Positions 1 to 63,419 of a DNA stretch of 64,000 nucleotides are shown in pieces. Positions within the stretch are counted from its first letter, which is position 1; each line of letters opens with the position of its first letter. Both the position numbers and the translations under genes were made by a program. This DNA is from Schmidtea polychroa (taxonomy: Eukaryota): contig CM097885.1 in the NCBI GenBank assembly GCA_044892525.1, positions 33,668,001 through 33,732,000 of the forward strand, in the 5' to 3' direction. A model generated the notes under the pieces. It made no database searches and was not told the origin of the DNA. It saw only the letters and a program-made list of their open reading frames with translations.

Positions 1-144
1 ATCATAAAATTAAAATTAATTTTTAAAATGAAATATTTAATCACTTTTAAATGTATTATTCTTTTTTCAATATTTTATTATATAAAAACATAAAAATTAT
101 ACTTGAATATTTATTTATTATAATTAAATTATACATTTATTTAA

Positions 145-223
145 AAACTTGACTATGAATCAGTAAAGATATCGATGTTTTTTTGGATATTCAAGAATTT
201 TCGGCACTGTCTTTTTCAAGTGA
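145..223 (-). repeat. Degenerate family B pLTR/hammerhead unit
   Basis: Similar to 3050-3136 and 42431-42510; stem II mismatched (GAC/GCC). Another partial copy lies at ~20393-20455. Confidence 0.6.
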
Positions 224-283
224 TTTTTTTATACATTTTTTTTATATTATTGTTTTTTTTATATTATTGTTATTAAATTTAAT

Positions 284-2880: not shown

Positions 2881-3046
<166 letters not shown>

Positions 3047-3103
3047 TATTAAAAAGAGAGTTTGAAGACTATAAATCAGTAATATATCGATGTTTGTTGA
3101 TAC

Positions 3104-3136
3104 TCACGAATTTTCGGCACTGCCTTTTTCAAGTGA
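3104..3136 (-). ncRNA. Minimal hammerhead motif, U3-A8 variant (family B)
   Basis: TCAC-TTGAAAA-A-GGC(agt)GCC-GAAA-AT-TC-GTGA; 4-bp stem I, AATT palindromic stem III. Confidence 0.65.
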
Positions 3137-3237
3137 ATTTAATAATAATAATTTTGTGTTGTGTTTAAAATATAGTTTTTGTTTTGTTTTTTGAAATATT
3201 ATGGATGTTATTAATTCAAGAAAGCAAGCATCTAATA

Positions 3238-3269
<32 letters not shown>

Positions 3270-3457
3270 TTAAATAAACACGGTAAAGATTTTATTAATA
3301 AAAATCGCCATTTGTACATCTTTTTCGCTATATATTTCGATAGCATCACTATCATCAGGTTACCTACATTCACGACGGATGAATAACTATACTATATTGA
3401 TAAAATAGTAGTATAGTTATCAATATAGTATAGTTATTCATCCGTCGTGAATGTAGG

Positions 3458-3498
3458 TAACCTGATGATGATAGTGATCCTATCGAAATATATAGCGA
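3458..3498 (+). ncRNA. Minimal hammerhead ribozyme motif (family A, Penelope pLTR)
   Basis: CTGATGA-T-GATAG(tgatc)CTATC-GAAA-TATA-TA; stem II 5 bp, palindromic stem III, weak stem I. Confidence 0.65.
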
Positions 3499-3522
3499 AA
3501 AAGATGTACGAATGGCGATTAA

Positions 3523-3723
<201 letters not shown>

Positions 3724-4062
3724 ATATTATTAAATATTAGATGCTTGCTTTCTTGAATTAATAACATCCATAATATTTCAAAATAAAACAAAAACTATAT
3801 TTTAAACACAACACAAAATCTCTCTTATTTAAACAATCTCTGTTTTTACCTTTGAGGATATTTCGCACGCATGAGTTAATAATTGAATAGGAAATATTCG
3901 TACACAAGTAATCAATAAATATTTTATATTTAAATTTTCAATCATTCTTAAATATATTTAATTTATTATTTTAATTTATAATTTTATTATCTACTTTTAT
4001 TTTATTATTTAAATCTATTTAAAACTGGAAATTAAATACTAATTCTATTTAATTAGTTTTAC

Positions 4063-4616: not shown

Positions 4617-21238
<16,622 letters not shown>

Positions 21239-24200: not shown

Positions 24201-25007
24201 CAGACACACTCTCTCGGACTAGCATACACACATCCTCGGGTAAATCGAATCTTGAAAAGTTTCTCCGACACACCTCTACAGCTACGAGTGTTAAGTGAAA
24301 AGCGGCAGAAATAAATAAATCTGGTTATCTCATCAATTCGAGTGACACAGGCGATAAGTTCTCTTCTATTAAAAATCTTTAATTCGGTCGGGTAAATAAT
24401 AAAAGCGGGCGACACCCTGCCATTACTTCGTCATAATTCTGTATCGATCTGGAATAAAATCGAAAGAGCCAGCGAAATTATAAACCCTTCAATAACTTTC
24501 TAATTATCATCCACTCAAGCAAAAAACTAATTCTTAATACCTTCTGTCGTTTTCTTCATGTTAGCTAACCAAGTGCGGAAACATATATTAATTTTTCTCG
24601 TTAAAGTAAATGATGTGGAAATTTTAATTACAAGTTTTCCCACAAAGCAAATAATCCACGATTAACATTAAAGTTTACTAAGTTTACCACTACTCATGAA
24701 CAGTAATATAAAGTCTACGTAATCAAATCCGAAAACCAATGATCAAATTTCTGTAATAGGATAGGAGGAAAGCCCATTTTTCAGTGTTGCATGATAGAAA
24801 CCCTACCCAACCCCTTCTAAAAATGCGGACAAATTTATCAATTTTTCATAATATGGATCACGCCGAATGAAGTATGATGAGTACGAGGATTCGCTCTTTA
24901 CTAGAGATTTGGGGGGGGGGGGGGTGGTGAAACCTTGCGGAACCTATTTTTTCGTGACGAGGTATTTTAATTATTTCATATAATTTCAATAAAATTTTCG
25001 ATACCAA

Positions 25008-25742
25008 ATGTCAGAACCAAACCTTCCTCCAACCGGCCCGAGACCGTGCTTCTCATGCGCCGACAAAAATGTTCTACTGAGAAAATCGGCCGAGTATATA
25101 GGGTCGTTAAAACGCAAGATCGACACCTTAGAGGGTACCTGGTTCACTCCAGCCAGTATGAAGGAGGCCCAGATGAAGATACTTCGGGTCGAACATTGTC
25201 GAGATAGTTTGCTGCAAGAGAGTCTGAGTCGGAGACTCACTATCAAAGCGCAATCGACCGCTCTACATCGCGTTTATTCCGAAGTCGAGTTAAAAGCGCG
25301 CATAACGGAATATCCAATCTCAGACAAGGGAAATCTTTTCCCCATACACCATGACTTGATTCATCAGGAGCCAGTTCAACCTTCTTGTTGCAGCGCTCAT
25401 GGCCCAACCATCGCGCTTCCAATCATGACAGACATCTTAAAGACAACCATGCCAGTAGCTGTGCAGCCAGTCATAAATCCGACAGATCCCACGACTTCTC
25501 AGTCAGCCGTTCCACCAGTACCTGGTAAGCAGAAGAGGAAGAAGCGGCTAACACAGGCCGAAAAGACAAAAAAACGTCGAGAGGAAATCGCGGCCCTCGA
25601 AGCGACCTTATTCGCGGCCACTCAGGCGAAGGGAGTATCTCCTACTGTTACCATCGTACCGGTCGAAATTGTACCGGTCGCCGTCTCTCAGCCATCTCTC
25701 GACCCTGCTTTGGAAGCGTTGTTGGCGGAGGGGGAGAAGTGA
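25008..25742 (+). CDS. Orphan 244-aa intronless ORF in GC-richer island (CxxC, coiled-coil-like segment, basic NLS-like patch)
   Basis: Uninterrupted ORF, GC far above flanks, with CFSC and KQKRKKR..KTKKRR. No family recognised. Confidence 0.5.
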   Translation: MSEPNLPPTGPRPCFSCADKNVLLRKSAEYIGSLKRKIDTLEGTWFTPASMKEAQMKILRVEHCRDSLLQESLSRRLTIKAQSTALHRVYSEVELKARITEYPISDKGNLFPIHHDLIHQEPVQPSCCSAHGPTIALPIMTDILKTTMPVAVQPVINPTDPTTSQSAVPPVPGKQKRKKRLTQAEKTKKRREEIAALEATLFAATQAKGVSPTVTIVPVEIVPVAVSQPSLDPALEALLAEGEK

Positions 25743-30079: not shown

Positions 30080-30568
30080 AGTGCTTCTGATTGAAAGATT
30101 TATATAAACTGATTTAATAGTAAAGTTTGAGTGCCTTCATTATACCTGTAAAATTCAGTTAAGGCTAGTTTAAGCCCGCAAATTTTAGAGACCATTCATG
30201 TTTTGCCATGCGATGCAAAAAAACATACAAAGAGTAATAAAAATACAGTTAAAAGTATGATTAATGCGTCTTGTGAAAACATGAGTGAGATACATTTTAC
30301 AGCCATGGATGAACATGAAGATAGCATGAAATATGTTTCGACTCGCATGACTTATTTTCTATTAATACAAATTACTCTACTGTTTAAAGTCATAATTTGT
30401 AGAAAATGTTTCTAAATACTCCAATAAACATCAATTATTGTGAAAACACTGAAAATCATTTGTGCAGACCATACGAAGAATATCCCAATGTTAAAGACAA
30501 AATTGAAATAAACCAAGTAAGAATATAATAAATAAGACTAATTTGTCATTGATAATGATATTCAGGAA

Positions 30569-31210
30569 ATGAAAGAATTTAAAAATTTAACAAAAAGATT
30601 AGAGAAAAATTCCAACCATATTAAAATTCCCATGAATGCTTTTATGGTTTGGGCAAAAGTTAACCGAAAACTCATGGCTACCCAATATCCGAATTTCTCA
30701 AATTTAGAAATCAGTAAATTACTTGGGAAAAAATGGAATGAAATGTCTGCAGAAGAGCGGACTCCATTTATCAATGAAGCCAAACAGCTTCGAATTGAGC
30801 ATTTGAATCAGTATCCAGAATTTAGATATCAACCTCGAAGACGACAAAAGAAATCGAAAAAATCTAAACCAATCAAAACCGATACGGTTTCTCCAACCAA
30901 TCAATGTTCGGCTGATTTTCACAATTTTGAAAATTTGAATTTACAGAAAATACCAAAATTCAATTATGCCGATTTGAATAATTTCGAGGTGAAAAACATC
31001 TACGACTTCCAGCCGGCCTCAATGAATTATAATTCTGAGATCAATTTATTTAATGATTATTTCGATCAATCCGTTGATTCGGTTTTCCAACCAATCGACA
31101 GCAATCTCCCATCCGTCAGTTCATTGATCTACAACAGTCATCCGTATACTTTCAATTATGATAAATCATTGGCGCCATTTAATTACATAGAAAATGAATT
31201 GTTTTTGTAG
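30569..31210 (+). CDS. Sox-family HMG-box transcription factor (divergent; YQPRRR end resembles SoxE)
   Basis: HIKIPMNAFMVWAK..NLEISKLLGKKW..ERTPFINEAKQLRIEH..YPEFRYQPRRR; AATAAA at ~31228. Upstream exons cannot be excluded. Confidence 0.93.
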   Translation: MKEFKNLTKRLEKNSNHIKIPMNAFMVWAKVNRKLMATQYPNFSNLEISKLLGKKWNEMSAEERTPFINEAKQLRIEHLNQYPEFRYQPRRRQKKSKKSKPIKTDTVSPTNQCSADFHNFENLNLQKIPKFNYADLNNFEVKNIYDFQPASMNYNSEINLFNDYFDQSVDSVFQPIDSNLPSVSSLIYNSHPYTFNYDKSLAPFNYIENELFL

Positions 31211-36924: not shown

Positions 36925-38149
36925 CGTGATGCTCTCAATATATAGTGAGACTGGCAAGTCATATAGAGTTTATTTCTAAAAATAATTTTCATTTTCATCG
37001 ACAAATTTTTTTCAAGGTGTAAGCAGATTTTGGAAGGTTATTTTAAAGCAACTCTGAGACTTTTTGCCTATAAAATGCTTCAGGTCATCTTTCAAATCCT
37101 CTTTTGTGCGAAATGCTGGACTCATAGTCATTTTTTGAGATGATTAAACAAGTAGAAGTCCTATAAAACCAAATTCGGACTGTATGGAGGATGGAAAAGC
37201 ACGTTAAGTTCACAACTCTTAATTGTATCTATTGAAACTGCATTTATGTGAAAAAGAGTGTTATTCTATAAGCAATAGAACCCACACATCCTGCTTTTTC
37301 TTCGGAGCTTACTTGTTTCTTGCCCAAGTTTGGAGTAAAAAGAGCTGTTAATTTGAACGCCACTTCTGCAAAACCAGGAAAATAATGCCATTGACATCCC
37401 AAAACACAGTCAACATAAGTGCCTTTCAGTGACTTGTTGATGACCTCATCTTCTTAGAACAGACATATCCCAAACAGTTTCTACTGTTCACATTCCAGTT
37501 TAGACTGTGGAACATAAAGTGAAAGCGGCGTCTCATAAGTGGTAATAATATTATCCAAAAAACACTCTCCAACATCGTTCAAAATCTGCAGGTTCTCTTC
37601 GCAGCGCTACATATATCGATTTTGCATTTGAGCAGTAAAAAACATATTACTAAGCTAGAGTCCAATTCTTTTATGCCACTTTCATTGAATAATACATAAA
37701 TAGTGACTTTACTCGCATTCAGGCGCATTGTTAACTTTCTGGTTGTAATTTTCCTTTCAGTCTGATAAATGTTTCTCACATTATCCATTATTTTTACTTT
37801 AATTTCACAAATCCTTCCCGGCTTTTCTTCATCATAGACTAATGTTCTGCCACTCTGGAAGAAACTGTACCAACGGTAAATTGTTGCTTTTGATGGGCAC
37901 TCACCTCCATAAATAGCACTCAGCTATGTATTGACATCTTCTCCGCTCTTGTATTTCATAAAGATAAACTAATGACACTGCGATGTAGACATTTTAAAAT
38001 AATTGCTAAAATTTCTTAATTAACTATTAACTGGTTAAAATAAATATCATTATATTTATCCATATACACAACTGAATATATATTTACTGTTTGGTTTATA
38101 TCATTTATTTGCTTCTATAAGGGTCTCACTACTTATTAAGTCCACCGCG
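36925..38149 (-). mobile_element. mariner transposon, decayed
   Basis: HPPYSPNL..DFYLF, MLTVFWD; degenerate ~28-bp TIRs ending TAGTGAGAC; TA TSD. Confidence 0.85.
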
Positions 38150-42042: not shown

Positions 42043-42870
42043 ACAGTGCATCGCAACCTTTTCTCATCTACGACACACTAAAACTCTTCCTAGAATTTTG
42101 CGGTACACCAAAAACTAAATTATATAGATATTTAATTCAAACAAAAATATTACAATGACTTTTATTTCAAAGAAAAATACAAATATAACATCTACAAATA
42201 TAACGCTATCTTAAACATTATTATAAAATAATAATTAATGTGATTTCTGCGCTTGTTTTAATGAACACAAATGTTTAATATTCGGCTCGATTTTCGACAG
42301 CGCTACCCGAAGTTCTTCATCAAGATCCACTTTTTATAAAAATATTATTATAAGAACTTTTATTTCTTCCAATTTCACCATTGATTATTTTTATCATTGA
42401 ATTAAAAAGAGTTTGAAGACTCTCTTGAAATCCACTTGAAAAAGGCAGTGCCGAAAATTCGTGATATATACATCGATATATTACTTATTTATAGTCTTCA
42501 AACTCTCTTTTTTATTATAAAAATATATTTATAACATACATTAATGTAAAATTTGACCTTGATGCTTTTTGCATATCTTCTTAATATCGTGTATTTGAAA
42601 AATATACTCTTAACTCATTCTCAATTGAGCTAAATTTTTGTCTCTATTGTTCTTAATATTTATAAATGTAGAAATCCTGACTCGCACAAATAGGATGTTG
42701 AAAGTTGTAACAAAATTTTAGATTTCTTTTCACTGATATTTGGATATTCCTGTTCAATAAATATCCAAAAAGAATCGAAGAGAATTCCTGAATACTTTAG
42801 TCTCAATGTGCTGTCATTATTGATTTATATTAATTCTTCTTCGGTAAGATTTAAATGAATTTTATTTTTT
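42043..42870 (-). mobile_element. hAT (Buster/Charlie-type) transposase C-terminal remnant
   Basis: STSYLCESGF and ELRVALSKIEPNIKHLC..QAQKSH*; CAGTG..CAACC terminus; interrupted by the family B unit. Confidence 0.75.
42433..42463 (+). ncRNA. Minimal hammerhead motif, U3-A8 variant (family B)
   Basis: CAC-TTGAAAA-A-GGC(agt)GCC-GAAA-ATTC-GTG within a repeat at ~42404-42515. Confidence 0.65.
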
Positions 42871-46988: not shown

Positions 46989-49900
46989 TCATTGGGGATT
47001 CATGATGATCTGCTCGATTGTATCATCCTTTTCCGTTAACCATAGCATATCCGACACAGTCTGTTCTACCTCTAAATCGGTGTGCCTTTCTGACATCTAT
47101 TAAAATTGCTTAATCAAAAAACAAATTTCCCCATGAAATTTTCTCTACCGGCATCCAATTTTCCACATCAGTCGGAGGGAAGGTGAAATTGGGACCGAAA
47201 TTCACCGTGACTGAGGCCGGCTTATAAATCGATATTGCAGGATAATATGCACCGTCAAATATATCGGTAAAGGCTGGTCCACATGAAACTCCATTTTTGT
47301 AGAAAATAATCTTTTATGTGTAATTTGCAAATAATAGAAAATCAATAATAACATCGATTTTAACTCACTTTACTGTTTTCTATTGATTTCAATTCTTTTT
47401 CCGCTTTAGATGCTTCCTCTTTCTCTTCATAATAATAACTATTTTTGAATTTAATAAGAGGCTAAAAGATAATTATATCCTTAAATGTGTTTTTTCCTCT
47501 CAATAAAAAATCAATAATGCAATTTTTAATTGTGCTAATTGTTGAAAAAAAGAAATAATCGATATTTAAAAAATATACCGATACAAGAAATTGTTTTAAG
47601 AAAAAATAATCTCACTCGTTCTTTAAACGATTCCGGTAGTTTACCAAATAATGTCTGTGTAAGATTTTGCTTCGATACTCGTTTGATATTGGGAGCATTT
47701 GCCTGGAACATGCATCCAAGAACATCACCTTTCTTATAGCCATTATTCATGTAGTGTTTTCCTTTCGATTGGTGAAAAGCAGTTCCGAATCGTGATCGAC
47801 ATGCATAACTGAATTTATCAAATCCACACGGTGCTTGTAAATTACCTATTGGTTGAAATTTTCAAAAAAAATGAAAAACAAAAATTATTTTTTTGAAATA
47901 TGATTTCCATGAGAAAAAATTTAATACTCAAAATGAAAGTCCGGTAAACTTTCGTCTGTTAATGGGGCCATAAAATTATACCCATAAGCTTTTGCCTAAC
48001 AGACCACATAAGACTTAATCTAATCAACTCTCCATAGTTCACAATCTTCATTTTTTTAGATTTTTGTTTTAATGAAATGATATTCGATGTCGGCTAAAAA
48101 TAAATCGATTATATACTGAAGGTCAAATCTAAAAATCTAAAAACCCTTGCAATTTATTTCTATTAGAAAATGAGATACGAAACTGGAATAAAGTTTGCAG
48201 TTACGAGGAAATTTAACGGCTTCGCAATGTGGGTATCAATTTGTGCAACTATATGGTAAAAAAGAATAAAAGGAAGATTACATGTTAGCACTCGATGATT
48301 GTAGTTTTAACCTTCCTCTACCTAAAACCTCTCATGATACACGAATTACTAAAATGGGGCCATATTTGACCTCAATCGTTTTTTTTGTTTTTAAACATGT
48401 CATTAAGGTTCCTAAACCAAAAGAAATGATTAAAAATTATACTCGGGGACTTTAAAACTTTACTTTCAAATATTCATGTACTAAAATTTATATTTAAGAA
48501 AGGAAAAACAAAATGTAATAGAAAGTAAATTAATGGCTACAAATAATTAAGCATTACAGTTCGAACAAGTTGTTACATTGGATTCTGTATGTTCAGGGCA
48601 AATGTATGCAGAACATAACGAACATATTTGGTGTCTTTCAACCTTGGCCTGAATGAATAGCGATTTGTTTTCCCTTTTCCTGAATTAGCGGGTAGTAGTA
48701 AATAAGTAGTAAAATAAATCAGGTATCACATTGGAACTTTTTGTCAATGTTGTAAACATAATTTCAGGAAGGAAATAATAAATTTGCATAAATTTAATTT
48801 GTAGTTTAGGAATTATTGCAAAATTTCATACTCTTGGGCCATTTCTGACCCCATTTTAGGTCCAGGAAGGTTAGTGGCTCAACTAGTGAAATAATTGGTC
48901 TAAAATATAAGAGACAGTAACAGGAAATAGCATTATGCTCTGGATGATGGCAACAGAAAAAAATCTAAATTCATATGAATATGTTCGCTTTCTTAAAGGA
49001 TAAAGTTGTTCACAAACATTGGAAAATCATATCTGATTTGGTTTACGATGAAAATAAAGAAGATTTGATGAGAAAGCACGAAGAATTCAAATATGACCTA
49101 AGTTCAACAAGATGTACAGTGAACATTTTGTATAATTGTTGATGTGTTCAAAATAATTTTGTCGTTGTTTGTGAAATTAAATATTACCAATTATTGATCT
49201 GATTCTAAAGCATGTCTTTTTTAATAATTATAACGAGCTCCAGGCAGTAAAACCCTATTGAATACCACTTTAAAGCGACACAAATAATTCAATATTACTG
49301 TTTTGGAGGATTTACCAGTTTGTACCGCCCGGTTTCCATTTGTAGTGGTGATAACAGTGGGATTTAAAATTTAACTTAAACTTAGGTTTAGTTAATGACG
49401 ATTGCTCTCGTGCATTCATTTTTCTATATTTTCTATGATATGTTTAGTGTAAAAAACTTGAAAATTTGTTTATCTATGTTAAAAAGATAAAATTATTGTA
49501 GTTCCTATTCAACAAAATAAAAAAATTTGGTCTTAGTTGTTTATATTGACCGTAATGCTTTGCGAATTTGAATATGTTAATGAAAATGACGAAAAGTCTG
49601 AAAGGGAAGCAGAATGTTTTGAAAAGATGGAATCGGAAATTATATTTCAAAATGATAATGCACAAAATATCGATGTTTAGAACGTAATATTAATCTTCAA
49701 GTTCATGGAGGATTTCAAAAACATAAAATGCATAAGTATTCTGTTGTTATTTATGAATGCGCGGTCTATGACTGTCAAAGGCGGTTCTCTCCACGTAAAA
49801 GTTATGAAAAACATTCAGAAAGTTCAAGATCTCAATTTCGTAAATCGATATATCTATACGATGAATCTATATTCAAATTTTCAAAATATGTAAATGTAGA

Positions 49901-52900
49901 ACAGGCATCAACAGTTGCAAGATATATTAACGGAAGCAACCCAAAATTCGTATCTAAAAACAATCGAATAAAGAATTCTAATGGTATTAAAAACAGTATA
50001 GATAATGTGATATTAATTAATCCTAAACTCGTTCCTGAATTGAATCTCTCAATGCTTCATGTTCGATTGAATTAAATTACTGACGATTTATGATCCCGCT
50101 GGATATTTCAAATATTCACTGATTGGCTATTTCGTTACGTTATCTTCACAGTCCTTTATGGATAAACATTGTTCAAACGTTGTATCTGCAAATTCACTTG
50201 AAGTTGAAGGAAAATATAATCTATTAACAATCGCCGATGATAATGATGAACAAGGATTCTTGACAAATTCCCAAGCTAGATTCTATTTGGAAGAAAGATC
50301 AACATGTTACAGAGAAAGGGGATCTAGTGAAAAAATAAGACAATAGTATCACCAAAATGTGGTAGCAGAGCTTATAACAACCCTTCGGGAAGAATTGCCC
50401 TTTAAAATACAACTTGGAATTCACAACCACTTGATTACTGTACTGGTTTCAATGATTGGTAGATTCGATATAGTTGCTTTCTTAGCTTTAACTTGAATTT
50501 TTTTTAAATCGTTTCTCCAGTAACTTCCTAATTCACCTTGGGATTCGTTTTAATCCTGTTTTCTTTTTTCTTTACAAATTGTTTCTTTTTATAGTCTGCA
50601 ATCTAATGGCACTTACTGATATTAACTTTCGTCCAGGTTCTCTATTCTTTATGTCATCTCCAGTTACTTTATTATCTCTCACAGCTAAGTTTTAAAGGAA
50701 ATATTACAAAAAATTCTTAATTGCTCACAGGAAATCGGTTTAATGAAAATTTAATTTATATTTATGTTTAATTTATTATGTTAATTTATTATAATGTTTA
50801 ATATTTTGTTAATGATTATTACTATATCAATAGAATTATTAATTATTAAGTCAATAATTTAATTTATTTAATATTGGTATTGATAAATAAATCAATATGA
50901 TCAATTCCTACCAAGAGATTGAGACCAACCAATTCTCGCATGTGAATTATCTGGCTGCTCGACAATTTTAGCTTCGAAATACCAACAGCCTCGAGAAACT
51001 GGCTGAGTAGCTCGAATCATACAATACCCTTTATCACCGGTAACCAACAACTGGCTATCTGATAACTTTAGTTGGTGAGCTTTATAAGCGTTAAGCGAGG
51101 TGAAATGGAAAAAGAAATGATTTAACCTCTATCATTTGTAGCTAACGCAATTTGCTGACTAATCGTTACCCGGTAAAAAAATCCTGGAATGATTCGGCCA
51201 GCTGTAGCTTCACATTCTTCCCAAAGTTGTCTACCTTTAGCATGAGGATCAGATTCCACATAAATATATCTAATACATTTGGAATTATCTCAGATAATGA
51301 AATTTGAATTAGAAGATTAGATAAATAATTATTCTTAAAAATAAAGAGACAGAAATGATTCGTGGAATATTTTCATCGAAATTATTTTTCGGACTATAAA
51401 TCAATATTTAGCACAAAATATTGATATATAGGGTGATTAATAAGTCTCCATCTTTGTCATTGTTAATGTTCTGCTTCGATTAATGTTATTCGTGGCGTAA
51501 GAAAAGAGACAAAATCCATAAATTGAGTCTAGTTATGTAGAGTCATCTTTTCTGGTCATTGGATAATTACGGTGATTATCACTCACATTTTCTCGTTATA
51601 ACTCTTTTGCGTGTGGATTAAGTAACAAAAATTCTCTCTTCTAATGGCTTCGCGTGAACCTGAAATTTCGATGCAAGAAAATATGTATTTCTGGCTAGTG
51701 TAGCCATTATTGCGGCTTTAGCAATTCGGGAATTGGAAGCAAGATACAAGTGGAAAGCACCAGGTCGAACAACAGTTCAATACAGCTAGACAATCAGATG
51801 AGAATCTCAAGAATGAAGGGATTCACTATGTCTTAGAACCAGGGATTCAGAGCGGTGGTTAAAAACGCTCCGCTCCATTATAAAAAAATCTCTCTGGATT
51901 TAACAAAAAAAACTAAAATTTTATATTAAAATTAAAAAACATAAATATAGATTTTTTAATCATTCTATAAAATTATTATTTAGCTTGATCAGCAAAATAT
52001 CTTGAAGTCTTTCTTCACTCAGGCGACAACGAAGGTGCGAAATAATGATAATGATAAACTTACTTACCCAAGAATATTATTATTTAAAAAGACAAACATT
52101 AAATAATTAAAAATATTAATAAAAATATTCAAATTATAATCAGCTGTTATTTGACACGTCAACACAAACTTAGATCCCAACATGCAAACCTAAGTAACAA
52201 AACTTACACTAATTTTCCTAAACCGACACTACATTCGTTTTCGAATAGGAATTTTAAAATAATGGAGCGGAGCCGAACCGCACTGCTCCGAATCCCTGCT
52301 TAGAATACTACAAAACTACAAGCCAGAGACGAACGGCCTCGGATATTGGAACATCCCAATAAATCCGTTCATAGAATCTTGAGAAAAGAAAATATTCGTC
52401 CGCGTTATGAAATGTGCTTACGAGAAGGACGCAATATTGAACATCGTGTATAATGTTACTTTGTGTGGTATTTGTATTCTGATAATTCGTATAAATAAAT
52501 AGATACTCTTTTCTTCAATTTAAAGTGTTTTAATCCTTTACAAACAGAGACAGAGACTTATGAATCACCCTGTATATTAAAAAGTAAAATAAGCATCCAG
52601 GGCGTGGTAGTCAAGCAAGTTCCAAGTAAAAGAGACCATATTTTTTGATTTATTTTAATTTCTGACTTTTTTTGAATTTAGTGATATTATACATGATGAA
52701 ATTAAATACAAATTCGAATAGTATAAACCAAAATATCCAGGCTTATTATATTATCAGTGGTGGAAATTCTGAAATTCGGATTCCCGTAGAATATTTATTT
52801 CATATATCATATTAATAAAAAATTTAAATTATATAAAAACAAAACTAAAACTTAACAGACCTTAAATAGTAAAATATTTCCTCCTTGATTTCATATTTGC

Positions 52901-55900
52901 ATTTCCATTTTTCAGCTGCTTCAAAGGTCTTTATCAATGTTATTACGCAAATAAGTTTTTATTATTTTCAGTTTTGAAAAAGAGCGTGAAGCTGATACAG
53001 CAGTAACACGGTAATATGAGAAACAATTAGAATGTTGTGAAATTCTTGCAGATATAGTTGACAATTTTATTATTAAAATGTCAGCGAATTTCGCGTAAGG
53101 ATGATATTTCTGATATTTCATCGTGCAGCATTGATTTAAATCATAACTATTTGAAGCAGAAATTCTTATGATATGTTTACAATATATTTTATCTGCAGAA
53201 ATTATGATAGCACGTTCCACTTCATTAACATTAATTTATTTGGATAGATCCAGGAAAACAATAGTGTCACTTCTTTTATTCTTATAAACCTATTTTCGAG
53301 TTGGTTGATTACAACGTTCAAAACTTTTTTAATGATATTTTTATATTTGTGGTTTCATTAGAGCATTTCAGCGTATTGTATAATTTTTTTAATAATAATT
53401 TTGGACTAGTTTCGCCACTGTATATAATATTATATTTTAATTCGAATAATAATAAATTGAAGAATATTGAATTGAATATTATTTGATTTATAATATTGAA
53501 TCGAATAATAGAATTCAATAATATTGAATTGAATATTATTGTATTTAATATCATTGAATTGAATAATGAATTGAAAAATATTGAATTGAATAATAATATT
53601 AAATTTAATATTGGATTTAATATTGAATGTAATAATTTATCAATTCTTAATACTGTGTCATAGAAATCCGTAAATTATTATATAAGTGGAAAAATTCATT
53701 TAAGTTCAATTTATTATAATATAAGAATAAAACATATTTACATTATTAACCAAAATATTCTATTAAAATATTCAGACTTTATAATAATAATTACTAATCT
53801 AATAATTACAGTAAACCCCGCAATTACGACCTAATTGGTTACTGAAAAGAAGTCGTAATGTGAGCAGTCGTAAAGAGAGGTTTTATTTCCCATTGACCAA
53901 ATGTTATAAATGGTTAATTCGTCGTAGGTCTTGAATTTTGCTTATCTATTTGAATTTTCGCCTATCTTTAACAAAATAATTTCATGCAATTATATGCGAA
54001 CTAAAGGTCAATTCATTAATAAAGGAAGCTAACATTTGCTGCAGACAAATATATTATGAAAAAATACCATCAGTTCAAAAAACATTAGATTGTTATTTTA
54101 AGAAGACTGCAGCTATTCTTGGGGCTGCTCAACCTGTATGTGCCAGCCAATCAATGGAGGTTGATAATAAAGAGGTGATAGAAGATTTTACAATTGAAAA
54201 TGATGTAGTTGCAATCGACGATGAACCCATTGAATCACACCTTTCTCAATCACACGAAAAGTATCTTTTGTACTCAAATACGCAATTGTACCAAATTTAA
54301 TTAAATAAAATTGTAGTTTAAATTTTTTTTATGAAAGAAATATTGTTTGTATTTTAAATATTATTCACTTATTAATAAATATTAAAAATAAACAAAATAC
54401 TTAATAATATTCGGTAGTATTGTGATTGAAAACATGAATGCCTAGTATTTTGTTACAAAATTAGTCATTATACTTTCATTGAAGTTAGGGCCTAACTATT
54501 GTAGGCTGGGGGAATATGTGGCTAGGCTAGTGGTAATTGTGAGTCATGGTCGTGATTGGCCTCAGAAAACGAGGTCGTAGATCGGGCGGTCGTAAGGCGA
54601 GGGTCTACTGTATATTGAATTTAATAATATTGATATATAATGTTAAATTTAATATTGAATGTAATAATTTATCGATTTTTAATACTGTGTGATAGAAATC
54701 CATAAATAATTATAAGGAAAAAAATCAATTTAAGTTCAACTTGTTAAATTGACTATTAATTAAATTTTAAAATTAATATCTGATTCAATCCTATGAATTA
54801 AATTTGTGAGTTTATAAACAATTCGGGTTACAAATCACATACCGATAACTATCCTTATTAAAAGGATGATCGACAGGGTAATTGAATTGAGTAAGTTTAA
54901 CTTTAGTTTCTTCAATTCCGCGTTTTGGTTTACCAGTATTAGTAACCATTTCTCCTACTCTCGTTGCAGACGGAGCGGAAGAACCCGTAGTTATTGTTGC
55001 ATTATTATTAGTGGCCTTCCGTTTTCGGTTATTAGCATGCCAGCCTCCTGATTGAGGAAGAATTCCTCCACCAGTTGTTACCTTAGTTTTCAGTTGACTG
55101 GCAAGAATTCGAAATTGATCATAACCTGGTTTCATTTGATATAAATTCTAAATAAATTGCATCCTATTCATTCAACCCCATTATCATTATTATAATATTT
55201 AATTACACATAATTGCAAATAAATTTGAAACATCCGACACTGAAGGAAATTACTAGACAAACAAACCAGTCTCGAATTATAAAAAAATATAATTGATTAT
55301 ATAATATTCGTCAAAATCTATACGATTTAAAAATAATAAAAACTCAAATTAGAGACAAAAGATACAAACTTCAATTAATGATAATTAAAGTACATGAATT
55401 TATTTTTGAGAACTTTTTTTAATGAGAAATTCATTAACCATAAGTTAAATCGAATAACTAAAATATATTCCCAGGTTCAATAAAATTTATATAATTTAGA
55501 AGTTTATGAAAATTTTTAGATTAATTCACTTTTTTACGAAACTCCGCGGATGTTGCAATCATTTCCTCAAAACCCTCTCTAATGAACTGATAAAAGTACT
55601 ATAGGAACACAAGTTAGAAATTTTGGTACTTGTTCATTATCGGGATCCCCAGTAAAAAAAATAATAAACTTTGAAAATAACTTACGACATGTTGAGTGTG
55701 ACCAGTACACTTGTGAGCAATACCCAAAGGGGGACAAAATATTTTGTATATATCTCGAGTATACCTTTTGTTTGATACACATATTATAAAGTTTGAAAAA
55801 TTCGAAGGTTTTAAATTTAATGGATTTTATTGAACGACGATTCATTCAAAATGTAATTTAGAAGTCGTTTTAAGTCAGACCCTCGAAGGTTTATGGTGGG

Positions 55901-58900
55901 TCAATAACCTTCAAAGGGTTAAAACCTACGAATTTTTGCTGAATTTATATTTTCTTTAAAAGTCAATGTAGAAAACGTATAAAAATCAGAAATGCAATTT
56001 TGAATATCTTTGATTAGTGTTTTTAAAAGTGTCTCAATGAATGCGGTTGTGCTGAGATGAGATTACGTGCTTATATATGTCCAGTGATCTAATTTCTTCT
56101 GCCCTCCTATAATATAAAGTTTCTATTTACCTTAGTCATTGAATACGCACCTTTTTTATATTAGATAATTTACTTATATCACTTAACTCAAGGTTTCCCA
56201 AACTACATTAAATAAATGGGAGAAATGAGCTAAATTTCATAATTGAATAAAAAATACCTATTCTAGACCGAAAATCTTCAATCAATAAAAACTGCGAAAA
56301 ACGCCTATTTTAATTATTTTTATTGGGCATATTTGAAATTTTTATTGTTATCTTTGATTGTTTCATGTTTATTTCATTTCGGTCATAATCTGTGGCGTAA
56401 AGGTTTCTTTAAATATTTCATCTGGATACCGTGATTATAAAAATCTACGAATGATGTTGCTTTATTTATTTTTAACGGAATCGGGTTCAGCGTACTGATT
56501 TTGCAATATAATTAAATATTTAGGGCATTCTAGATAGTAATTGTCGAGAAAAATTTAGATTAATAATTAATTTAGTCAATAAATAGTCGCACAATAAGAA
56601 TGATTTCCATATTGAACGCAGCAAGAATATGTCAGTGGCAACAGCACTCATTAGTAATGCAACGACCGATGGTTCAAATCTCATTTCGAGTACTTTTTTT
56701 CAAATTTTTTTTTAAACAAAATATTCATTTGCTACTTATAAAAATTTTTAGGTAAATTGGTCAACGAGATATCTTAGAAATTTAAAACTAAAAACATTTT
56801 TACTTAGGCAATCATTGTACATTAGATAATTTAATTAATTTAACGTTACATATTTAACGCTTTTGCTAATAACTTTTACAATATAAATTGAAACAAATTA
56901 AATTAGATATCAATAAATAGATAATTAAATTTACTATATATATTATATCGAATTTTTTTAAATGAAATAATGGTGATTTATTCTAGAAAATTGATGTGGC
57001 TACACAGCTTTCAACCGTTTGATTGATAATAGTCTAGAACTAATTACACGAATGGTCAACTATTGAAGTCTATATGGAAATATAAAGAAGTCGATTTGAA
57101 ATTCAAAGATTTGCCTTACAACCTCGGAAAATTCGAAATAGAGTTGAATTATTCGTATAAACAGGCGGTAGATAAAAATTAGGAAGTTGTAGAGAAATAT
57201 AAGTTTCTAATCAAGTTATGTACGCTTTCAGACTTTGGTGTCAACATATGAAACTATTCCATTCGATAATTTCCTGTGAGCAATAACTAATAAACATTAA
57301 TATCTAACATTCCTTACAAATGGTTTATATGTGAAATTAGAGTAATATTTTTTAATTACATAGCCCTGTGAGCTTTAAAAGCTCATGAACTTAATATTTC
57401 TAACATATTTTCATCAATCTCTGGAATCTATAGAAGATTTACTAATACGTGGATAACTATTTAAAGAATATAAATAAAGCTAATTAAGTAACAAATGAAA
57501 CAATGATAATATAAATGTCCATAGCATAAAATTTTCATTTAAATGTAAATTAGCATATAATCAATTAAAATCAATAAATATTTATTTAAATTTAAATGTA
57601 GAAATATTGAATCAAATCTGATTTTGAAATATAAATAACAGTTCTAAAAGAATTACTTATCCAAATACATGAAGTATACATTGTTCGGAAGGGAAAAGTT
57701 GATTTTCAAATAACATTAGAATAAAAAGAGATCGATGCCGATAAAAAGTAATAATAAATTTATAATAATTATATTATCTTTATTAATTCGATCTAATTAT
57801 AAAAAATAAGTTACCGTATTTTTCAGACACACGATGACATCATCTCCGATTATATGATGTTTGAATATATCGTTGCTTATCTATAAATATACAAATATAT
57901 ATATTTGGAAACACGTGAATGAGCATAGTTAACTATTGTCTTAATGAGTTGTTTTTTATGTTAACTACCTAGTGGGGTATAACTCCAACTCGAGTACAAA
58001 GAAGCGAAGATTAGTAAAGCCGTTTATTTTGAAAGTGAAGAAATTCTACTTTTTGTTATAGTGAGATATGTGAAGACTTGCACTTTTCAATCAATTTTAA
58101 AATATAGATAAACTCTAGCAGCCAACTTTTGTGTTCCTTGTAGTTAAAGAAAATGTAAATTACTTATCTAATAATGTTTATAAAAGATGTGTGAAAAAAA
58201 TAGAAAGTTTGTTATATTCATTTGGTTTCGAAATAAGTTCGATATACACCAGGTATCAACAAAATAACGTCGTTTAGAACATCCATGGCCAACCGGTGGC
58301 CCGCGAATCGTTTTGATGTGACACGGACACAATTTTAAACATCAAATCAATAATTGTCTTTTTTAGAATTCATATTCGAATTAAGCATGTTTTTAATTTA
58401 AAAAATTGATTCTAAGTTTACTTGAATCGTAAAAACGAGTTATATTTATTTAAATGAATTTATTGTGGCCCGTGATAGTATTTTTCCGAAATTTTGGCCC
58501 TTCGATTGATTTGGGTTGGCCACCACTTGTTTAGAACATAGGTAAAAGTTCGCTTTTGCATTAATTTATATTTGCTTGAAGATAATGAAGATTTATATTG
58601 TAATGTTTGTAACATAAACTGAAATATTTCCTGGTTTTTACGAACAGACTATTGCTATGAAACTGGCATTTGAATAACATTTAGTAGAGATATCCAAGGC
58701 TCTTATGGCACTATAAATGGAGTTATTTGAGTTGGAGGAAGTTAGTATCATCAAATATCTTTTTGATTCTATCAAGGGTTGCATTGAAATGTGAAAAAAA
58801 TTCAGTTGAATATCAATTCCTACTATGGGAAACATGTCATTTTCTGTCATGTTTTGGAACTTACTGGTGCGTGCCAACAAATTTAAGAATGCAAATTGCA

Positions 58901-59298
58901 GATATTCATTTAAAGAATCAGTAATGACTGCGCGTTACGAATTTTGTTCCAGATATTTCGAATATATATATATATATTCGAAATATCTGGAACAAATATA
59001 TAAAGACGTAGGTATGGGTCATTTGCCCCCCCCCAATAAATTATTGATTTCCAAATATAAATTAGGGATTAGATGTTTTAATAACCTAATTAATTTCTAT
59101 CAAAAGAGTATTGATTGTATCCAAAAACTCTTGAATATGAGTTTAAGCTGTGGTACAAAAAATTTGAAATCACACTGGCAACTGCTGTAGATATAGATTA
59201 GCAATTTGCCGGTATCAACTTGTACAGCAGGGCGTTCTTTTTCATCACTTAAATACCTGAAAAAAGCTAAACGGTTTGGCCTAGTTATATATTCATCA

Positions 59299-59360
<62 letters not shown>

Positions 59361-60511
59361 GATTAATAAGTCTCCATCTTTGTCATTGTTAATGTTCTGC
59401 TTCGATTAATGTTATTCGTGGCGTAAGAAAAGAGACAAAATCCATAAATTGAGTCTAGTTATGTAGAGTCATCTTTTCTGGTCATTGGATAATTACGGTG
59501 ATTATCACTCACATTTTCTCGTTATAACTCTTTTGCATGTAAATCAAGTAACAAAAATGCGCTCTTCTAATAGCTTCGCGTGAACCTGAAATTTTGATGC
59601 AAGAAAATATGTATTTCTGGCTAGTGTAGTCATTATTTTCGATAGTGCGACTTGAGCAATTCGGGAATAGGAAGCAGATACAAGTGGAAAGCACCAGGTC
59701 GAACAACAGTTCAATACAGCTAGACAATCAGATGAGAATCTCAAGAATGAAGGGATTCACTATGTCTTAGAATACTACGAAACCACAAGCCAGAGACGAA
59801 CGGCCTCGGCTATTGGAACATCCCAATAAATCCGTTCACAGAATCATTAGAAAAGAAAATATAAAACATTTAATATTCGCATAATCTAATTTACAAAAAT
59901 TATTTTAATATATTTCTAATAATGTTGTAGTTAAGACAAGAATTTTTTTATCGAATAAAATATTACCAATGTTTTGTGTATACTGGGATTTAGAGCTGCA
60001 AACGTTTTTTTCGGTTGAGTAGTCAGAGCCTCCCAATTCTCTTCTAAAAACGGTATGATATCTTTTTCTTTGGAAAAATAGACTTTTCCATTATTGATAA
60101 ACATTAAATTTGCTAGTGCTGTTTGACACATACTAGCAAAATTACTTTGTTTTCTAGAAAAAACTTCTTCACAACTTTCATTACATTTTTTGCACATGAA
60201 ATGATATGCAATCATAAAAGGAATAGCCTTGCTAATTATTTATTAAAATTATTCAATATGAGATTTTATTACCCTATTGTAAAACCTATACAGTGTTTGT
60301 GAAACCATTTATTACAATTGCTGCATTGAAAATCTGGAATACTAAAGTCTCTTTGGGTGTTGCTAAAAATATGTTAAACGAGATATTTTAAAGCCAATAT
60401 TAATAACCAGTAACATTGAGGAATAGTAGGCTTTTCAATGACAATTCTTTCAGTTAACAATTTGGAAATTTTTTCGGGATCTAAATCATTCACACGAATG
60501 TTATCAATCAT
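46989..60511 (-). CDS. ASH2L: Set1/MLL (COMPASS) subunit ASH2 / ASH2L
   Basis: Exons 60408-60511, 60273-60362, 59967-60231, 57815-57880, 54843-55147, 51127-51269, 50912-51079, 47616-47845, 47369-47461, 47149-47310, 46989-47096 are phase-consistent. They give a PHD-like finger (CYC..QCSNCNKWFH..CKKC), a winged helix (KEKDIIPFLEENWEAL), YPVDHPFNKDSYRY, a SPRY domain (GDKGYCMIRA, WYFE, ARIGWSQ, NLQAPCGFDKFSY, VNFGP) and a DPY30-binding tail (VEQTVSDMLWLTE). Confidence 0.95.
48311..48870 (-). mobile_element. Internally deleted piggyBac
   Basis: TTAA-CCTTCCT..CCTAAAA / TTTTAGG..AGGAAGG-TTAG; internal Cys-rich C-terminus CSLCSAYICPEH..CSNC. Confidence 0.75.
48900..50460 (+). mobile_element. Unclassified decayed DNA-transposon-like coding remnants in ASH2 intron
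   Basis: Broken ORFs including a C-x4-C-x12-H motif (49728-50075); superfamily not determinable. Confidence 0.3.
51429..52572 (+). mobile_element. Non-autonomous Tc1/mariner element (copy 1)
   Basis: TIR AGGGTGATT(A/C)ATAAGTCTC, TA flanks; near-identical partial copy at 59355-59862. Confidence 0.85.
51840..52298. mobile_element. hAT MITE nested in Tc1/mariner copy
   Basis: TIR CAGGGATTC, 8-bp TSD CTTAGAAC/CTTAGAAT; empty site present at ~59766. Confidence 0.9.
52598..53330 (-). mobile_element. hAT transposase remnant
   Basis: VTAVSASRSFSKLKIIKTYLRN, the hAT dimerisation motif. Confidence 0.7.
53809..54610. mobile_element. pogo/Tigger-like non-autonomous element
   Basis: TA-CAGTAAACCCCGCAATTACGACC / GGTCGTAAGGCGAGGGTCTACTG-TA. 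Confidence 0.8.
58280..58529. mobile_element. hAT/Charlie-like MITE
   Basis: TGGCCAACC / GGTTGGCCA termini, GTGGCCC subterminal motifs, flanking direct repeat GTTTAGAA. Confidence 0.7.
58640..59300 (+). mobile_element. hAT transposase remnant
   Basis: LPVSTCTAGRSFSSLKYLK. Confidence 0.6.
59303..59356. repeat. (TA)n microsatellite
   Basis: Direct inspection. Confidence 0.97.
59355..59862 (+). mobile_element. Non-autonomous Tc1/mariner element (copy 2, truncated) abutting (TA)n
   Basis: High identity to 51429-51839 plus 52299-52395. Confidence 0.85.
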
Positions 60512-60929
60512 TTCAATGCAAATGCAAAATATAGTATTCAAAAAACTTTTCAAAATTGCACAAAATTCAGACAAATTTAAACAACGAAAAATTCTTAATA
60601 TAAATTAAATTATGTTAATTGTAAACAATATGAACTAAAATATCATATACAAAGTTTCAGAATTATATTGAAAAAATCACTTATTTATTTCATTTAATAA
60701 AATAAAGTATAGTTTTATTTTAAATTTATGAAATTAACTTATTATATGAATTTATTATTTGGCAATTATATTCTGTGAGTTCATAAAGAAAATTTGGACA
60801 ATTCAGTTACATAAATTATTATCCATTTCATTGGATCAAAGAAAAATTTACTGTACCAATCGGTTTTATTTTTAGTTTAATTGTTTAATTGCTAAATAAA
60901 TGGTTTCATAAACGCGAATTTCCTCAAAG
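60512..60929. promoter_or_regulatory. Putative bidirectional promoter ASH2L/TRPC
   Basis: Divergent inferred start codons 418 bp apart; ATTGG (~60830) and CCAAT (~60856) boxes in opposite orientations. Confidence 0.55.
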
Positions 60930-61550
60930 ATGTGGGAAATAGAATTAGTATCTAAACAATTGGATAGTTTACGATCTTTGATCGCTGGTAAGAATAAGAA
61001 ATGCACAATAGTTGGTCAAAAACTGCAGTCAGAAAGTGGATTAGTGTTTTCAACACATTTAAAAGACAAGGAGTACATTTACTTAAATGCTGTTGAATTT
61101 GGTGAATATGAAATGGTTCAAAAGATGGTTGAGGATCCTGAAATAAATGTCAACTGTGTTGATTATATGGGGCGAAGCGCTATATTATTAGCAATGAAAA
61201 GCGATAACATGGAAATGATTGAATTACTTTTGGATAAATTGGAATATTGCCTTATTGAAGATGCATTATTAAATGCTATAAGTAACGAAAAAATCAACCT
61301 AGTAAAATTGATAATTGATCACCAAACATTCATCAGAGCAGAAAAGTCACATCAAAGACAACGTTTAAGAATGCAAAATGCAAAAAAGTCTTACCGAAGT
61401 CAATTTTCATCAGATATAACGCCTGTAATGTTAGCTGCTCAAACGAATAATCACGAAATAATTCAATTGCTATTGGACAGAGGTCATGCGCTAGACATGC
61501 CGCATGATATCGGATGCATGTGCCCGCACTGTGAGAAATTAAAAAATGAG
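60930..61550 (+). CDS. TRPC: TRPC (canonical TRP channel) first coding exon: ankyrin repeats plus TRP_2 zinc motif
   Basis: YLNAVEFG, INVNCVDYMGRSAI, DALLNAI, SQFSSDITPVMLAAQTNNHEIIQLLL, PHDIGCMCPHC; donor GAG|gttggt at 61550/61551. Confidence 0.92.
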
Positions 61551-63419
61551 GTTGGTAGAAAGAAATTTCTTAATTTAATATTCCAAATATTAGCATGTTT
61601 TGAAATTTAAAAATTATGAGTATAATGAATAATTAAATAAAATTATTTAATTACGAAACTTTTTTAATTAGTTTATTTTTTAATTATTATTACTGAAAAT
61701 CATCAAATAAATTTAACATTTTGTGTTTAATATAATTAAGATAATTCTGTGGAATTATAAAATTTATTATTTTAAAAATTATTATTATTTTTAATTAATT
61801 TTATATTTATTTTTCATTTTTATGACAATAACATAATTTTATTTAACTTAAATTTAAAGTTTTTGAAATTTTTTATATTTTAATGAAGTATCCACTTTAT
61901 CATTAAAATTAGTAATTATTTATAATTTTATTTCCAGTTTTCTTTGATTCATACTTATCTAAATTTAAATGTTATTAAAAAATTATTATTTGTTATAATT
62001 AAAATAATTCATTTCGTTCTTCATTTCTTTCAAACAATAGATCAATATTTTGTTAAATAGAAAACAAAGCATTTTTTTATAATCTGAAAGAAATAAAGAT
62101 AAACGAAATTATAATTGTAAACATATCCCATGTGAATGAGATAAAGATTTTCGTGAGTTAAATGAAACTGAAGTAATTTTTAACTAAATCTGTCGTTTTA
62201 TTTGAAGTTACAACTTTTCGGTACTAATTATCATTTTTTTCAATTATTCCTTCCTTTGAAAGACCAAGTATTTTAATCTGTATTAGACTCATAAAGGTTG
62301 TGAACTGAAACAAAATGACTTCACTAAAATCTAAATTATTTTTCCTGCTGGTTTATTTTTACATTTTCAACAATCATAAATAACATTTAAAGTTAATAAA
62401 TATTAATGGGTACTAGCTTTTTAATTTCTATTTAATAACTTGTGTATCCTTTTAATAATTTTTTAGATATATCTCTTACAAAATTATAATTTATCAGTAA
62501 AATCTTTTAATTTTTGTTCGCCTTTTATCTGTTTTCTTTTGATGTTTTATTTATTTTCATTATGGCAATAAATGGATTATTATTTAATATTTTAAAATGT
62601 GTAATTAATTCAAAAAAATAATAATTTTCGATGTAAATGTTTTGTTTTATACAAATTTATATCTATGAATATTTGGCATGTCCGATCTTTTACGATAGAC
62701 AATTTAGCAAGGTGGTTTTTCTGCGACAATTATTTTGATGTTTAGAAGACAAATATTACTGTTAGTATATTTGTATTGTCTTATAATTATATGCGTCGCT
62801 GAAATTTAATTTCGCATAATTTACTATCGCGTAAATGGAGTCACGGAAATTCATGTTGCGTAAGATCAACTAAACCGTATATTTATTTTTTTAACCAATG
62901 ACAATTGATAAAGTTAATTTAAAGCGAGCCGCAAATTTTTATACCTAATAGACGTGCCACTCTCAACCGAGATAATTATAGCCTCTCAATTGTTCGTCAA
63001 AATTTACTTACCAGTAAAAAAGAATTCAATCAAGATACATCTCTCAAATGTCACGTATATGCTGAATTAGACTTTATACGCTTGAAAATAATACGTACAT
63101 TGTTTTAACAATTTGTACAATGAAATGGATAGTTGAAGGCACAATATACCATAAAGACAATGAATATTTATATTTGAAAATGCCTACCGAAATCATTCCT
63201 TCTGGTTATAAGTTTAAGTTAAAAAATATCTTCAAACTTATTTTGTCTTACTTTTATACTATGGCACCGTGCATCCCCTTTTAATTATTATTTTACACCC
63301 TGGGTTACCCAAACACTGATGTATATATATATGTATATAAATTATTAAATAGCAAAAAATATTTGGAAACTATAGATTAGATTTTATCATAGTAGTCGTC
63401 GGTTCGTTCTTCATTGTAG

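Follow-up and report, generated by a model that had tools for sequence, protein, structure and literature searches.

Minimal hammerhead ribozymes (min-HHRs) of type I are known from Penelope-like elements (PLEs), and some of them have a core in which U3 pairs with A8. Cervera and De la Pena (2014, PMC4209133) describe this core in the Cercyon elements of Schistosoma mansoni, a species from which a dedicated descriptor retrieved about 1,300 U3-A8 motifs, and one row of their Figure S3, S. mansoni(4), gives the core UUGAAAAA within a Penelope-like element. Natural U3-A8 pairs, active in vitro according to earlier work, had been reported by Perreault et al. (2011, PMC3088659), in whose account a helix II of two pairs and a weak helix III are common in natural hammerheads. 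PLE insertions are marked by an inverted copy, a tail of 30–40 bp and a preference for ATT targets (Craig, 2021, PMC8557442; Frangieh et al., 2024, PMC11167929), and this target preference is also described for the anole Poseidon element PAc (PMC11167929).

The stretch of DNA analyzed here (the window) comprises 64,000 nucleotides from the planarian Schmidtea polychroa. The initial annotation had described a min-HHR with a U3-A8 core on the minus strand at 3104-3136, a second motif on the plus strand at 42433-42463 and a degenerate one at 191-223, all lying in a repeat of about 90–110 bp. The letters at 3104-3136 are as claimed, the plus-strand motif was recovered and spans 42432-42464 when its unpaired first base C is included, and the degenerate motif is present with two pair-breaking changes. 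The repeat shared by the three is about 90–95 bp long according to nhmmer (E = 6e-30, 3e-26 and 2e-19, with a profile built from the same three copies). Overlooked in that annotation were a fourth copy without the motif (copy D) and inverted 3' pieces with a tail of about 45 nt at two loci. The features are as follows.

3104..3136, minus strand: minimal type I hammerhead motif of copy A, with U3 at 3132, A8 at 3127, the unpaired A at 3125, helix II at 3124-3116, G12 at 3115, the AAUU palindrome at 3112-3109 and C17 at 3108
3045..3140, minus strand: whole unit of copy A, about 95 bp, continuing into an (ATT)n tract at 3045-2881
42432..42464, plus strand: motif of copy B, helix I being 3 bp long and the predicted cut lying between 42460 and 42461
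42428..42515, plus strand: forward unit of copy B, its sequence common to public contigs from about 42428
42345..42421, minus strand: inverted 3' piece directly upstream of copy B, with the tail of about 45 nt that is absent in forward copies
191..223, minus strand: motif of copy C, second subfamily, likely dead
about 135-227, minus strand: unit of copy C, C/D subfamily
20401..20456, plus strand: forward piece of copy D, C-type, without the motif, starting about 4 nt past the predicted cut site
20322..20405, minus strand: inverted 3' piece at copy D, bearing the tail

Read on the minus strand, copy A is TCAC / UUGAAAA / A / GGC-AGU-GCC / GAAA / AU / UC / GUGA. In type I numbering this gives U3 U4 G5 A6 A7 A8 A9, with the covaried U3-A8 pair, followed by one unpaired A between positions 9 and 10.1, a helix II of three pairs (GGC/GCC) that is closed by G10.1-C11.1 and encloses the 3-nt loop AGU, then G12 A13 A14 A15.1, the two-base palindrome AU at 15.2-16.2, U16.1 and C17 as the UH step, and the 3' strand of helix I. 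The predicted cut falls between 3108 and 3107. Helix I, for which at least 3–5 bp would be expected, has 4 bp in copy A, or 6 bp with a G-U pair (3102-3138), and 3 bp in copy B, which differs from copy A by a single base change, its first base being C. In copy C one change lies in helix II (10.2) and the other at 1.1, each breaking a pair, and helix I is broken. All positions of the 2014 consensus are thus matched except for the already published U3-A8 swap. The annotation of a dispersed repeat that carries a Penelope-type min-HHR with U3-A8 core accordingly agrees with the published consensus; its implication that such a core is new does not hold, since U3-A8 was already found by a dedicated search in 2014 (PMC4209133) and had been observed in natural sequences in 2011 (PMC3088659).

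To gauge the chance rate, a descriptor was used that equals the published consensus with either 3-8 pair and that had been composed after the motif had been seen. It gave no match in 300 order-2 Markov windows and one in 600. Relaxed forms gave 7, 22 and 165 matches in 600 simulated windows, the last (0.28 per random window) being the form without the G10.1-C11.1 and palindrome requirements. Copies A and B, as members of one family, count as one event in this argument. Pattern scans of metagenomes found 0 matches with the long pattern and 6 with a shorter one; there were 14 in prokaryote genomes and none in viral contigs or phages. These 20 prokaryotic and metagenome matches to the core-plus-helix-II pattern were judged to be chance, a helix I of at least 3 bp being present in only 2 of them. 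Folding-energy z-scores were −1.85 for copy A, −0.47 for copy B and +1.07 for copy C, not significant alone; the predicted fold of A and B has the hammerhead outline but an unremarkable stability, and copy A's opposite strand gives a fold of the same shape. Because the energies are not significant and the opposite strand folds alike, the case for a hammerhead rests on the letters of the core. The Rfam covariance models returned 11 matches at E ≤ 1 and no hammerhead, missing the U3-A8 family and, equally, a canonical-core CUGAUGA family in the same window.

The repeat unit is made up of the motif (33 nt), a spacer of about 55 nt with a T run and AATAAA at its end and, in some cases, about 45 nt of tail. 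All four forward copies (A to D) end where the spacer does, the inverted pieces upstream of B and D bear the tail, and the copies fall into two subfamilies, A/B and C/D. The PLE arrangement of an inverted 5' copy with an optional 3' tail is seen at loci B and D and at contig joints, with a tail of about 45 nt against 30–40 bp in PLEs. (ATT)n tracts adjoin copies A and C, not B or D, in a window that is 27% GC throughout and contains long (ATT)n tracts. We also considered copies A and C as a pLTR pair, as they lie on one strand 2.9 kb apart, and rejected this; they belong to different subfamilies and there is no RT between them.

Contigs from two DNA-like studies, X2, which may share its source with the window, and X5, which comes from another study, were placed on 42340-42600 with copy B as the reference; this reference has lost 5 nt at 42464-42470, where depth and loose ends are distorted as a result. 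In total 10,028 contigs (X2) and 4,786 (X5) were placed, as expected of a very abundant family. Coverage is deep over both the tail piece and the forward unit, dropping about a thousandfold beyond 42520; summed across the motif it is roughly 20,000–35,000 times that of a flank contig, a ratio that is not a copy number. At the 5' edge contigs depart from the reference at 42428 and 42433 (105 and 68 in X2, 101 and 68 in X5), and the loose ends before 42428, from 105 X2 and 101 X5 contigs, are long and mutually unlike (median 99–137 letters, agreement 0.44). Such departures into long unlike sequence indicate that the family starts at a fixed point at helix I and has no fewer than about 170 separate junctions. 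A forward copy is joined to an inverted tail piece, whose length varies, in 14 of the 15 joints listed (37 in all), with re-entry at 42428-42436 in 8 of those 14.

Within 42433-42459 every substitution stays below 2% in all four runs. Within the motif C17 to U is the most frequent change (10.6% of depth in X2, 8.0% in X5) and is permitted by the UH rule, while G1.1 to A (6.1% in X2, 3.4% in X5) and G1.3 to A (3.1% in X2) break helix I with no change of the partner. Among the listed variants at 2% or more there were no compensatory two-sided stem changes, the family being too uniform. The spacer at 42476-42510 is nearly as uniform as the motif, so the youth of the family explains much of the motif's conservation. 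Between subfamilies, 2 events separate the 33-nt motifs, against 23 in the spacer and tail taken together, which have 82 matched bases (Fisher p 0.04, or 0.12 for the spacer alone, with few copies and hand-set borders), and this better preservation of the motif than of its flanks may be taken as a weak sign of selection. Two further contig sets, X7 (347 contigs) and X9 (12), are uninformative on transcription because their RNA nature was guessed; one X7 contig runs unspliced across the predicted cut, and runs of A or T close two single X9 contigs, which is too weak to use.

We suggest, with high though not complete confidence, that the repeat is a PLE derivative of about 90–140 bp headed by a U3-A8 min-HHR and copied by a Penelope RT, and that its ribozyme would cut weakly after AUUC, likely as an AAUU-paired dimer or with the help of a protein. 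A competing account, to which we give a little less than even credence, is that the copies are not a separate non-autonomous element; they would be 5'-truncated 3' ends, comprising pLTR and tail, from an autonomous family of Penelope elements that codes elsewhere in the genome. Most min-HHRs are single motifs, probably from truncated PLEs, according to PMC4209133, and an ATG stands at the same place at the tail start in both subfamilies, as would suit a tail like that of the anole element, which lies within the 5' part of its frame (PMC11167929). Random truncation would, however, scatter the starts, whereas all three motif-bearing copies in the window begin within about 4 nt of helix I and the contig sequences before 42428 do not resemble one another; contig counting over-weights unique flanks, and a minority with a shared upstream part could be present. 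Also against truncation, the tail frames after the ATG differ between the two subfamilies, and the tail peptides gave only short low-complexity matches, and no PLE N-terminus, when compared with 150 PLE-like proteins.

No RT/GIY-YIG frame for the U3-A8 family was found near any of its four loci within the 64-kb window. The sole PLE-like coding remnant in the window spans 7325-9397 and is followed by a copy of the CUGAUGA-core hammerhead family at 9605, not by the U3-A8 family. The U3-A8 repeat is thus a second family, as had been proposed, distinct from the CUGAUGA family that stands beside the RT/GIY-YIG remnant; the layout of an inverted copy plus tail is common to both families. The remnant itself is a Penelope-like RT plus GIY-YIG frame, broken in several pieces (7271-9400, plus strand, with a gap at about 7672-8385), and the CUGAUGA copy lies about 200 nt past it. 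The CUGAUGA family occupies 3262-3530 and 9550-9660, with motifs at 9605, 3462 and 3358, and is characterized by a U insertion, a 5-bp helix II, a 6-base palindrome and a poor helix I (1–2 bp). Two of its copies form an inverted pair centered near 3410, with the tail on the inverted copy and with three core bases missing from the copy at 3358. On either side of this pair the same 120-bp flank occurs, in opposite orientations (3140-3260, minus strand; 3712-3820, plus strand), and copy A comes directly after.

The window also holds other mobile elements and host genes. Translations, judged by eye, point to a decayed Gypsy-like element at 10286-14338, whose direct repeats lie near 10286-10473 and 14156-14338, to a pogo/Tigger-like transposase at 18230-19075 and a mariner-like fragment at 37579-37923. 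An open frame of 249 codons (24993-25742, plus strand) lies in a GC-richer stretch and has no Pfam match. The host ASH2 gene (46992-60239, minus strand, about 10 exons) is 82–97% identical to ASH2 of Schmidtea mediterranea per aligned block; one of its exons is 94% identical to the S. mediterranea gene, the next hits being at most 70% identical (22 hits), which makes a Schmidtea-type planarian the likely host. Its introns contain two copies, 93–100% alike, of a repeat (51395-52395 and 59321-59862). An HMG-box gene at 30542-31210 (plus strand) is presumably Sox-like, and an ankyrin-repeat exon at 60912-61610 (plus strand) resembles, as we take it, the N-terminus of a TRP channel.

For the proposed PLE derivative, we infer mobilization by a Penelope RT/GIY-YIG protein. 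The RNA of the unit would be reverse-transcribed by the Penelope RT from either of two 3' starts, at the spacer end or the tail end, and would integrate where AT-rich DNA is nicked, in many cases together with a fold-back inverted piece. As most copies keep the 5' half of the ribozyme, the template would be mostly uncut RNA, as it is for the anole element (PMC11167929). Copy D, which begins about 4 nt past the predicted cut, starts as if from a cleaved template, though as a single case with a palindromic junction. Because there is no loop 3, the A15.1-U16.1 pair could form only between two copies (PMC4209133; PMC6765202, a review that also relays the min-HHR dimer result of Lunse et al.), and helix III of the dimer would consist of four A-U pairs. 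Nearest-neighbor energies, in a model that ignores core tertiary contacts, are −10.6 kcal/mol for the double hammerhead, −15.0 for a pair of monomers and −26.6 where an extended duplex lacking helix III forms through the near-palindromic helix II, so that the active dimer would be disfavored. Cleavage is expected to be weak or assisted, and the chances of a measurable cut in a stabilized construct appear to be about even.

[quoted passage not shown] Such a loss would fit the unfavorable energy of the active dimer and the half upstream of the predicted cut that the copies retain; min-HHRs, moreover, cut poorly in vitro, and the anole hammerhead needs protein, its mutants leaving insertion unaffected (PMC11167929). 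An inert motif would not, on the other hand, lead one to expect better preservation than in the flanks between subfamilies or a main variant that sits at the tolerant position 17, and we consider this account possible but less likely than not.

In copy A the 3' strand of helix I opens with GUGAGU precisely where the cut is predicted, with a branch-like sequence and AG 39 nt further on (3107-3069, minus strand), a donor likeness noticed after the fact. Only 53 of the 17,544 Gs of the window are followed by GTRAGT, a GTGAGT donor is in use in the host ASH2 gene, and PLEs have introns touching their hammerhead. Were the repeat a non-autonomous, ribozyme-headed planarian Penelope SINE whose predicted cut site also served as a splice donor, the two reactions, splicing and self-cleavage, would be in competition there, and any spliced RNA would have lost its ribozyme. 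We regard this as a long shot. The candidate intron of 39–42 nt compares with host introns here of 47, 52 and 58 nt and lies below the planarian short-intron peak of 45–85 (PMC13594981). The donor of the other subfamily is weaker, none of the 15 contig joints listed (of 37) is a splice joint at the predicted cut, and no report of a splice donor at a hammerhead cut site was found in the open literature.

That the motif is a chance hammerhead look-alike in an unrelated repeat, e.g., a MITE, is very improbable: a 21-bp inverted repeat brackets copy B (42401-42421 and 42493-42515), fold z-scores are weak and the most relaxed descriptor matches often, but the full descriptor is rare by chance and the unrelated prokaryotic and metagenome matches seldom have a helix I. 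The MITE itself was rejected, the inverted arm being a 3' copy of variable length that is absent at A and C and has other lengths at D and at contig joints, with no fixed terminal repeat.

No report of a planarian U3-A8 Penelope hammerhead was found in the open literature, Repbase, Dfam and subscription papers lying outside the scope of the search, and Lunse et al. (PMC5785218) may already list this type of family. Each odd feature is already in print, namely the core swap, an additional base following A9, the AU palindrome and the 3-bp helix II. The gain is thus a probable planarian family of U3-A8 min-HHRs that Rfam misses, useful for repeat annotation and of little consequence for ribozyme biology. 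Its compact form and fixed 5' edge make it a test case for whether Penelope hammerheads cut in vivo, and for why copies retain the uncut ribozyme.

Like retrozymes, which are linked to PLE pLTRs, the repeat is short, non-coding and hammerhead-bearing; retrozymes form tandem arrays with mostly canonical hammerheads, whereas here dispersed single copies carry a minimal motif (Cervera and de la Pena, 2020, PMC7229834; Li et al., 2026, preprint 10.64898/2026.07.22.740005). A non-LTR retrozyme was rejected, as the window has no head-to-tail tandem array of the unit. PAc is similar in having a hammerhead near the element end and two RT start points for the tail; it differs in its C3-G8 core, its known protein partner and cleavage shown with protein only (Frangieh et al., 2024, PMC11167929). 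The hammerheads of Perreault et al. show the same 3-8 covariation, and the relevant part of that paper draws no link to Penelope (PMC3088659). With PLE min-HHRs the motif shares type I, the lack of loop 3, the unpaired base after A9, G10.1-C11.1 and the palindromic 15.2-16.2. In the alignment of PMC4209133, the C. briggsae row has a 3-bp helix II starting GGC as in copy A, the C. gigas row has the AU palindrome, the P. marinus row has copy A's 4-bp helix I, and several rows have a 3-nt loop II; the helix II of copy A (3 bp, 3-nt loop) is at the short end. The combination of U3-A8, a 3-bp helix II with a 3-nt loop and the AU palindrome occurs in no row of the alignment parts compared, and the Schmidtea mediterranea row has a C3-G8 core, in contrast to U3-A8 here. 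No linked frame was found in the window for the present family; the S. mansoni(4) min-HHR, which is PLE-linked, has the core UUGAAAAA, identical to that of copy A (PMC4209133).
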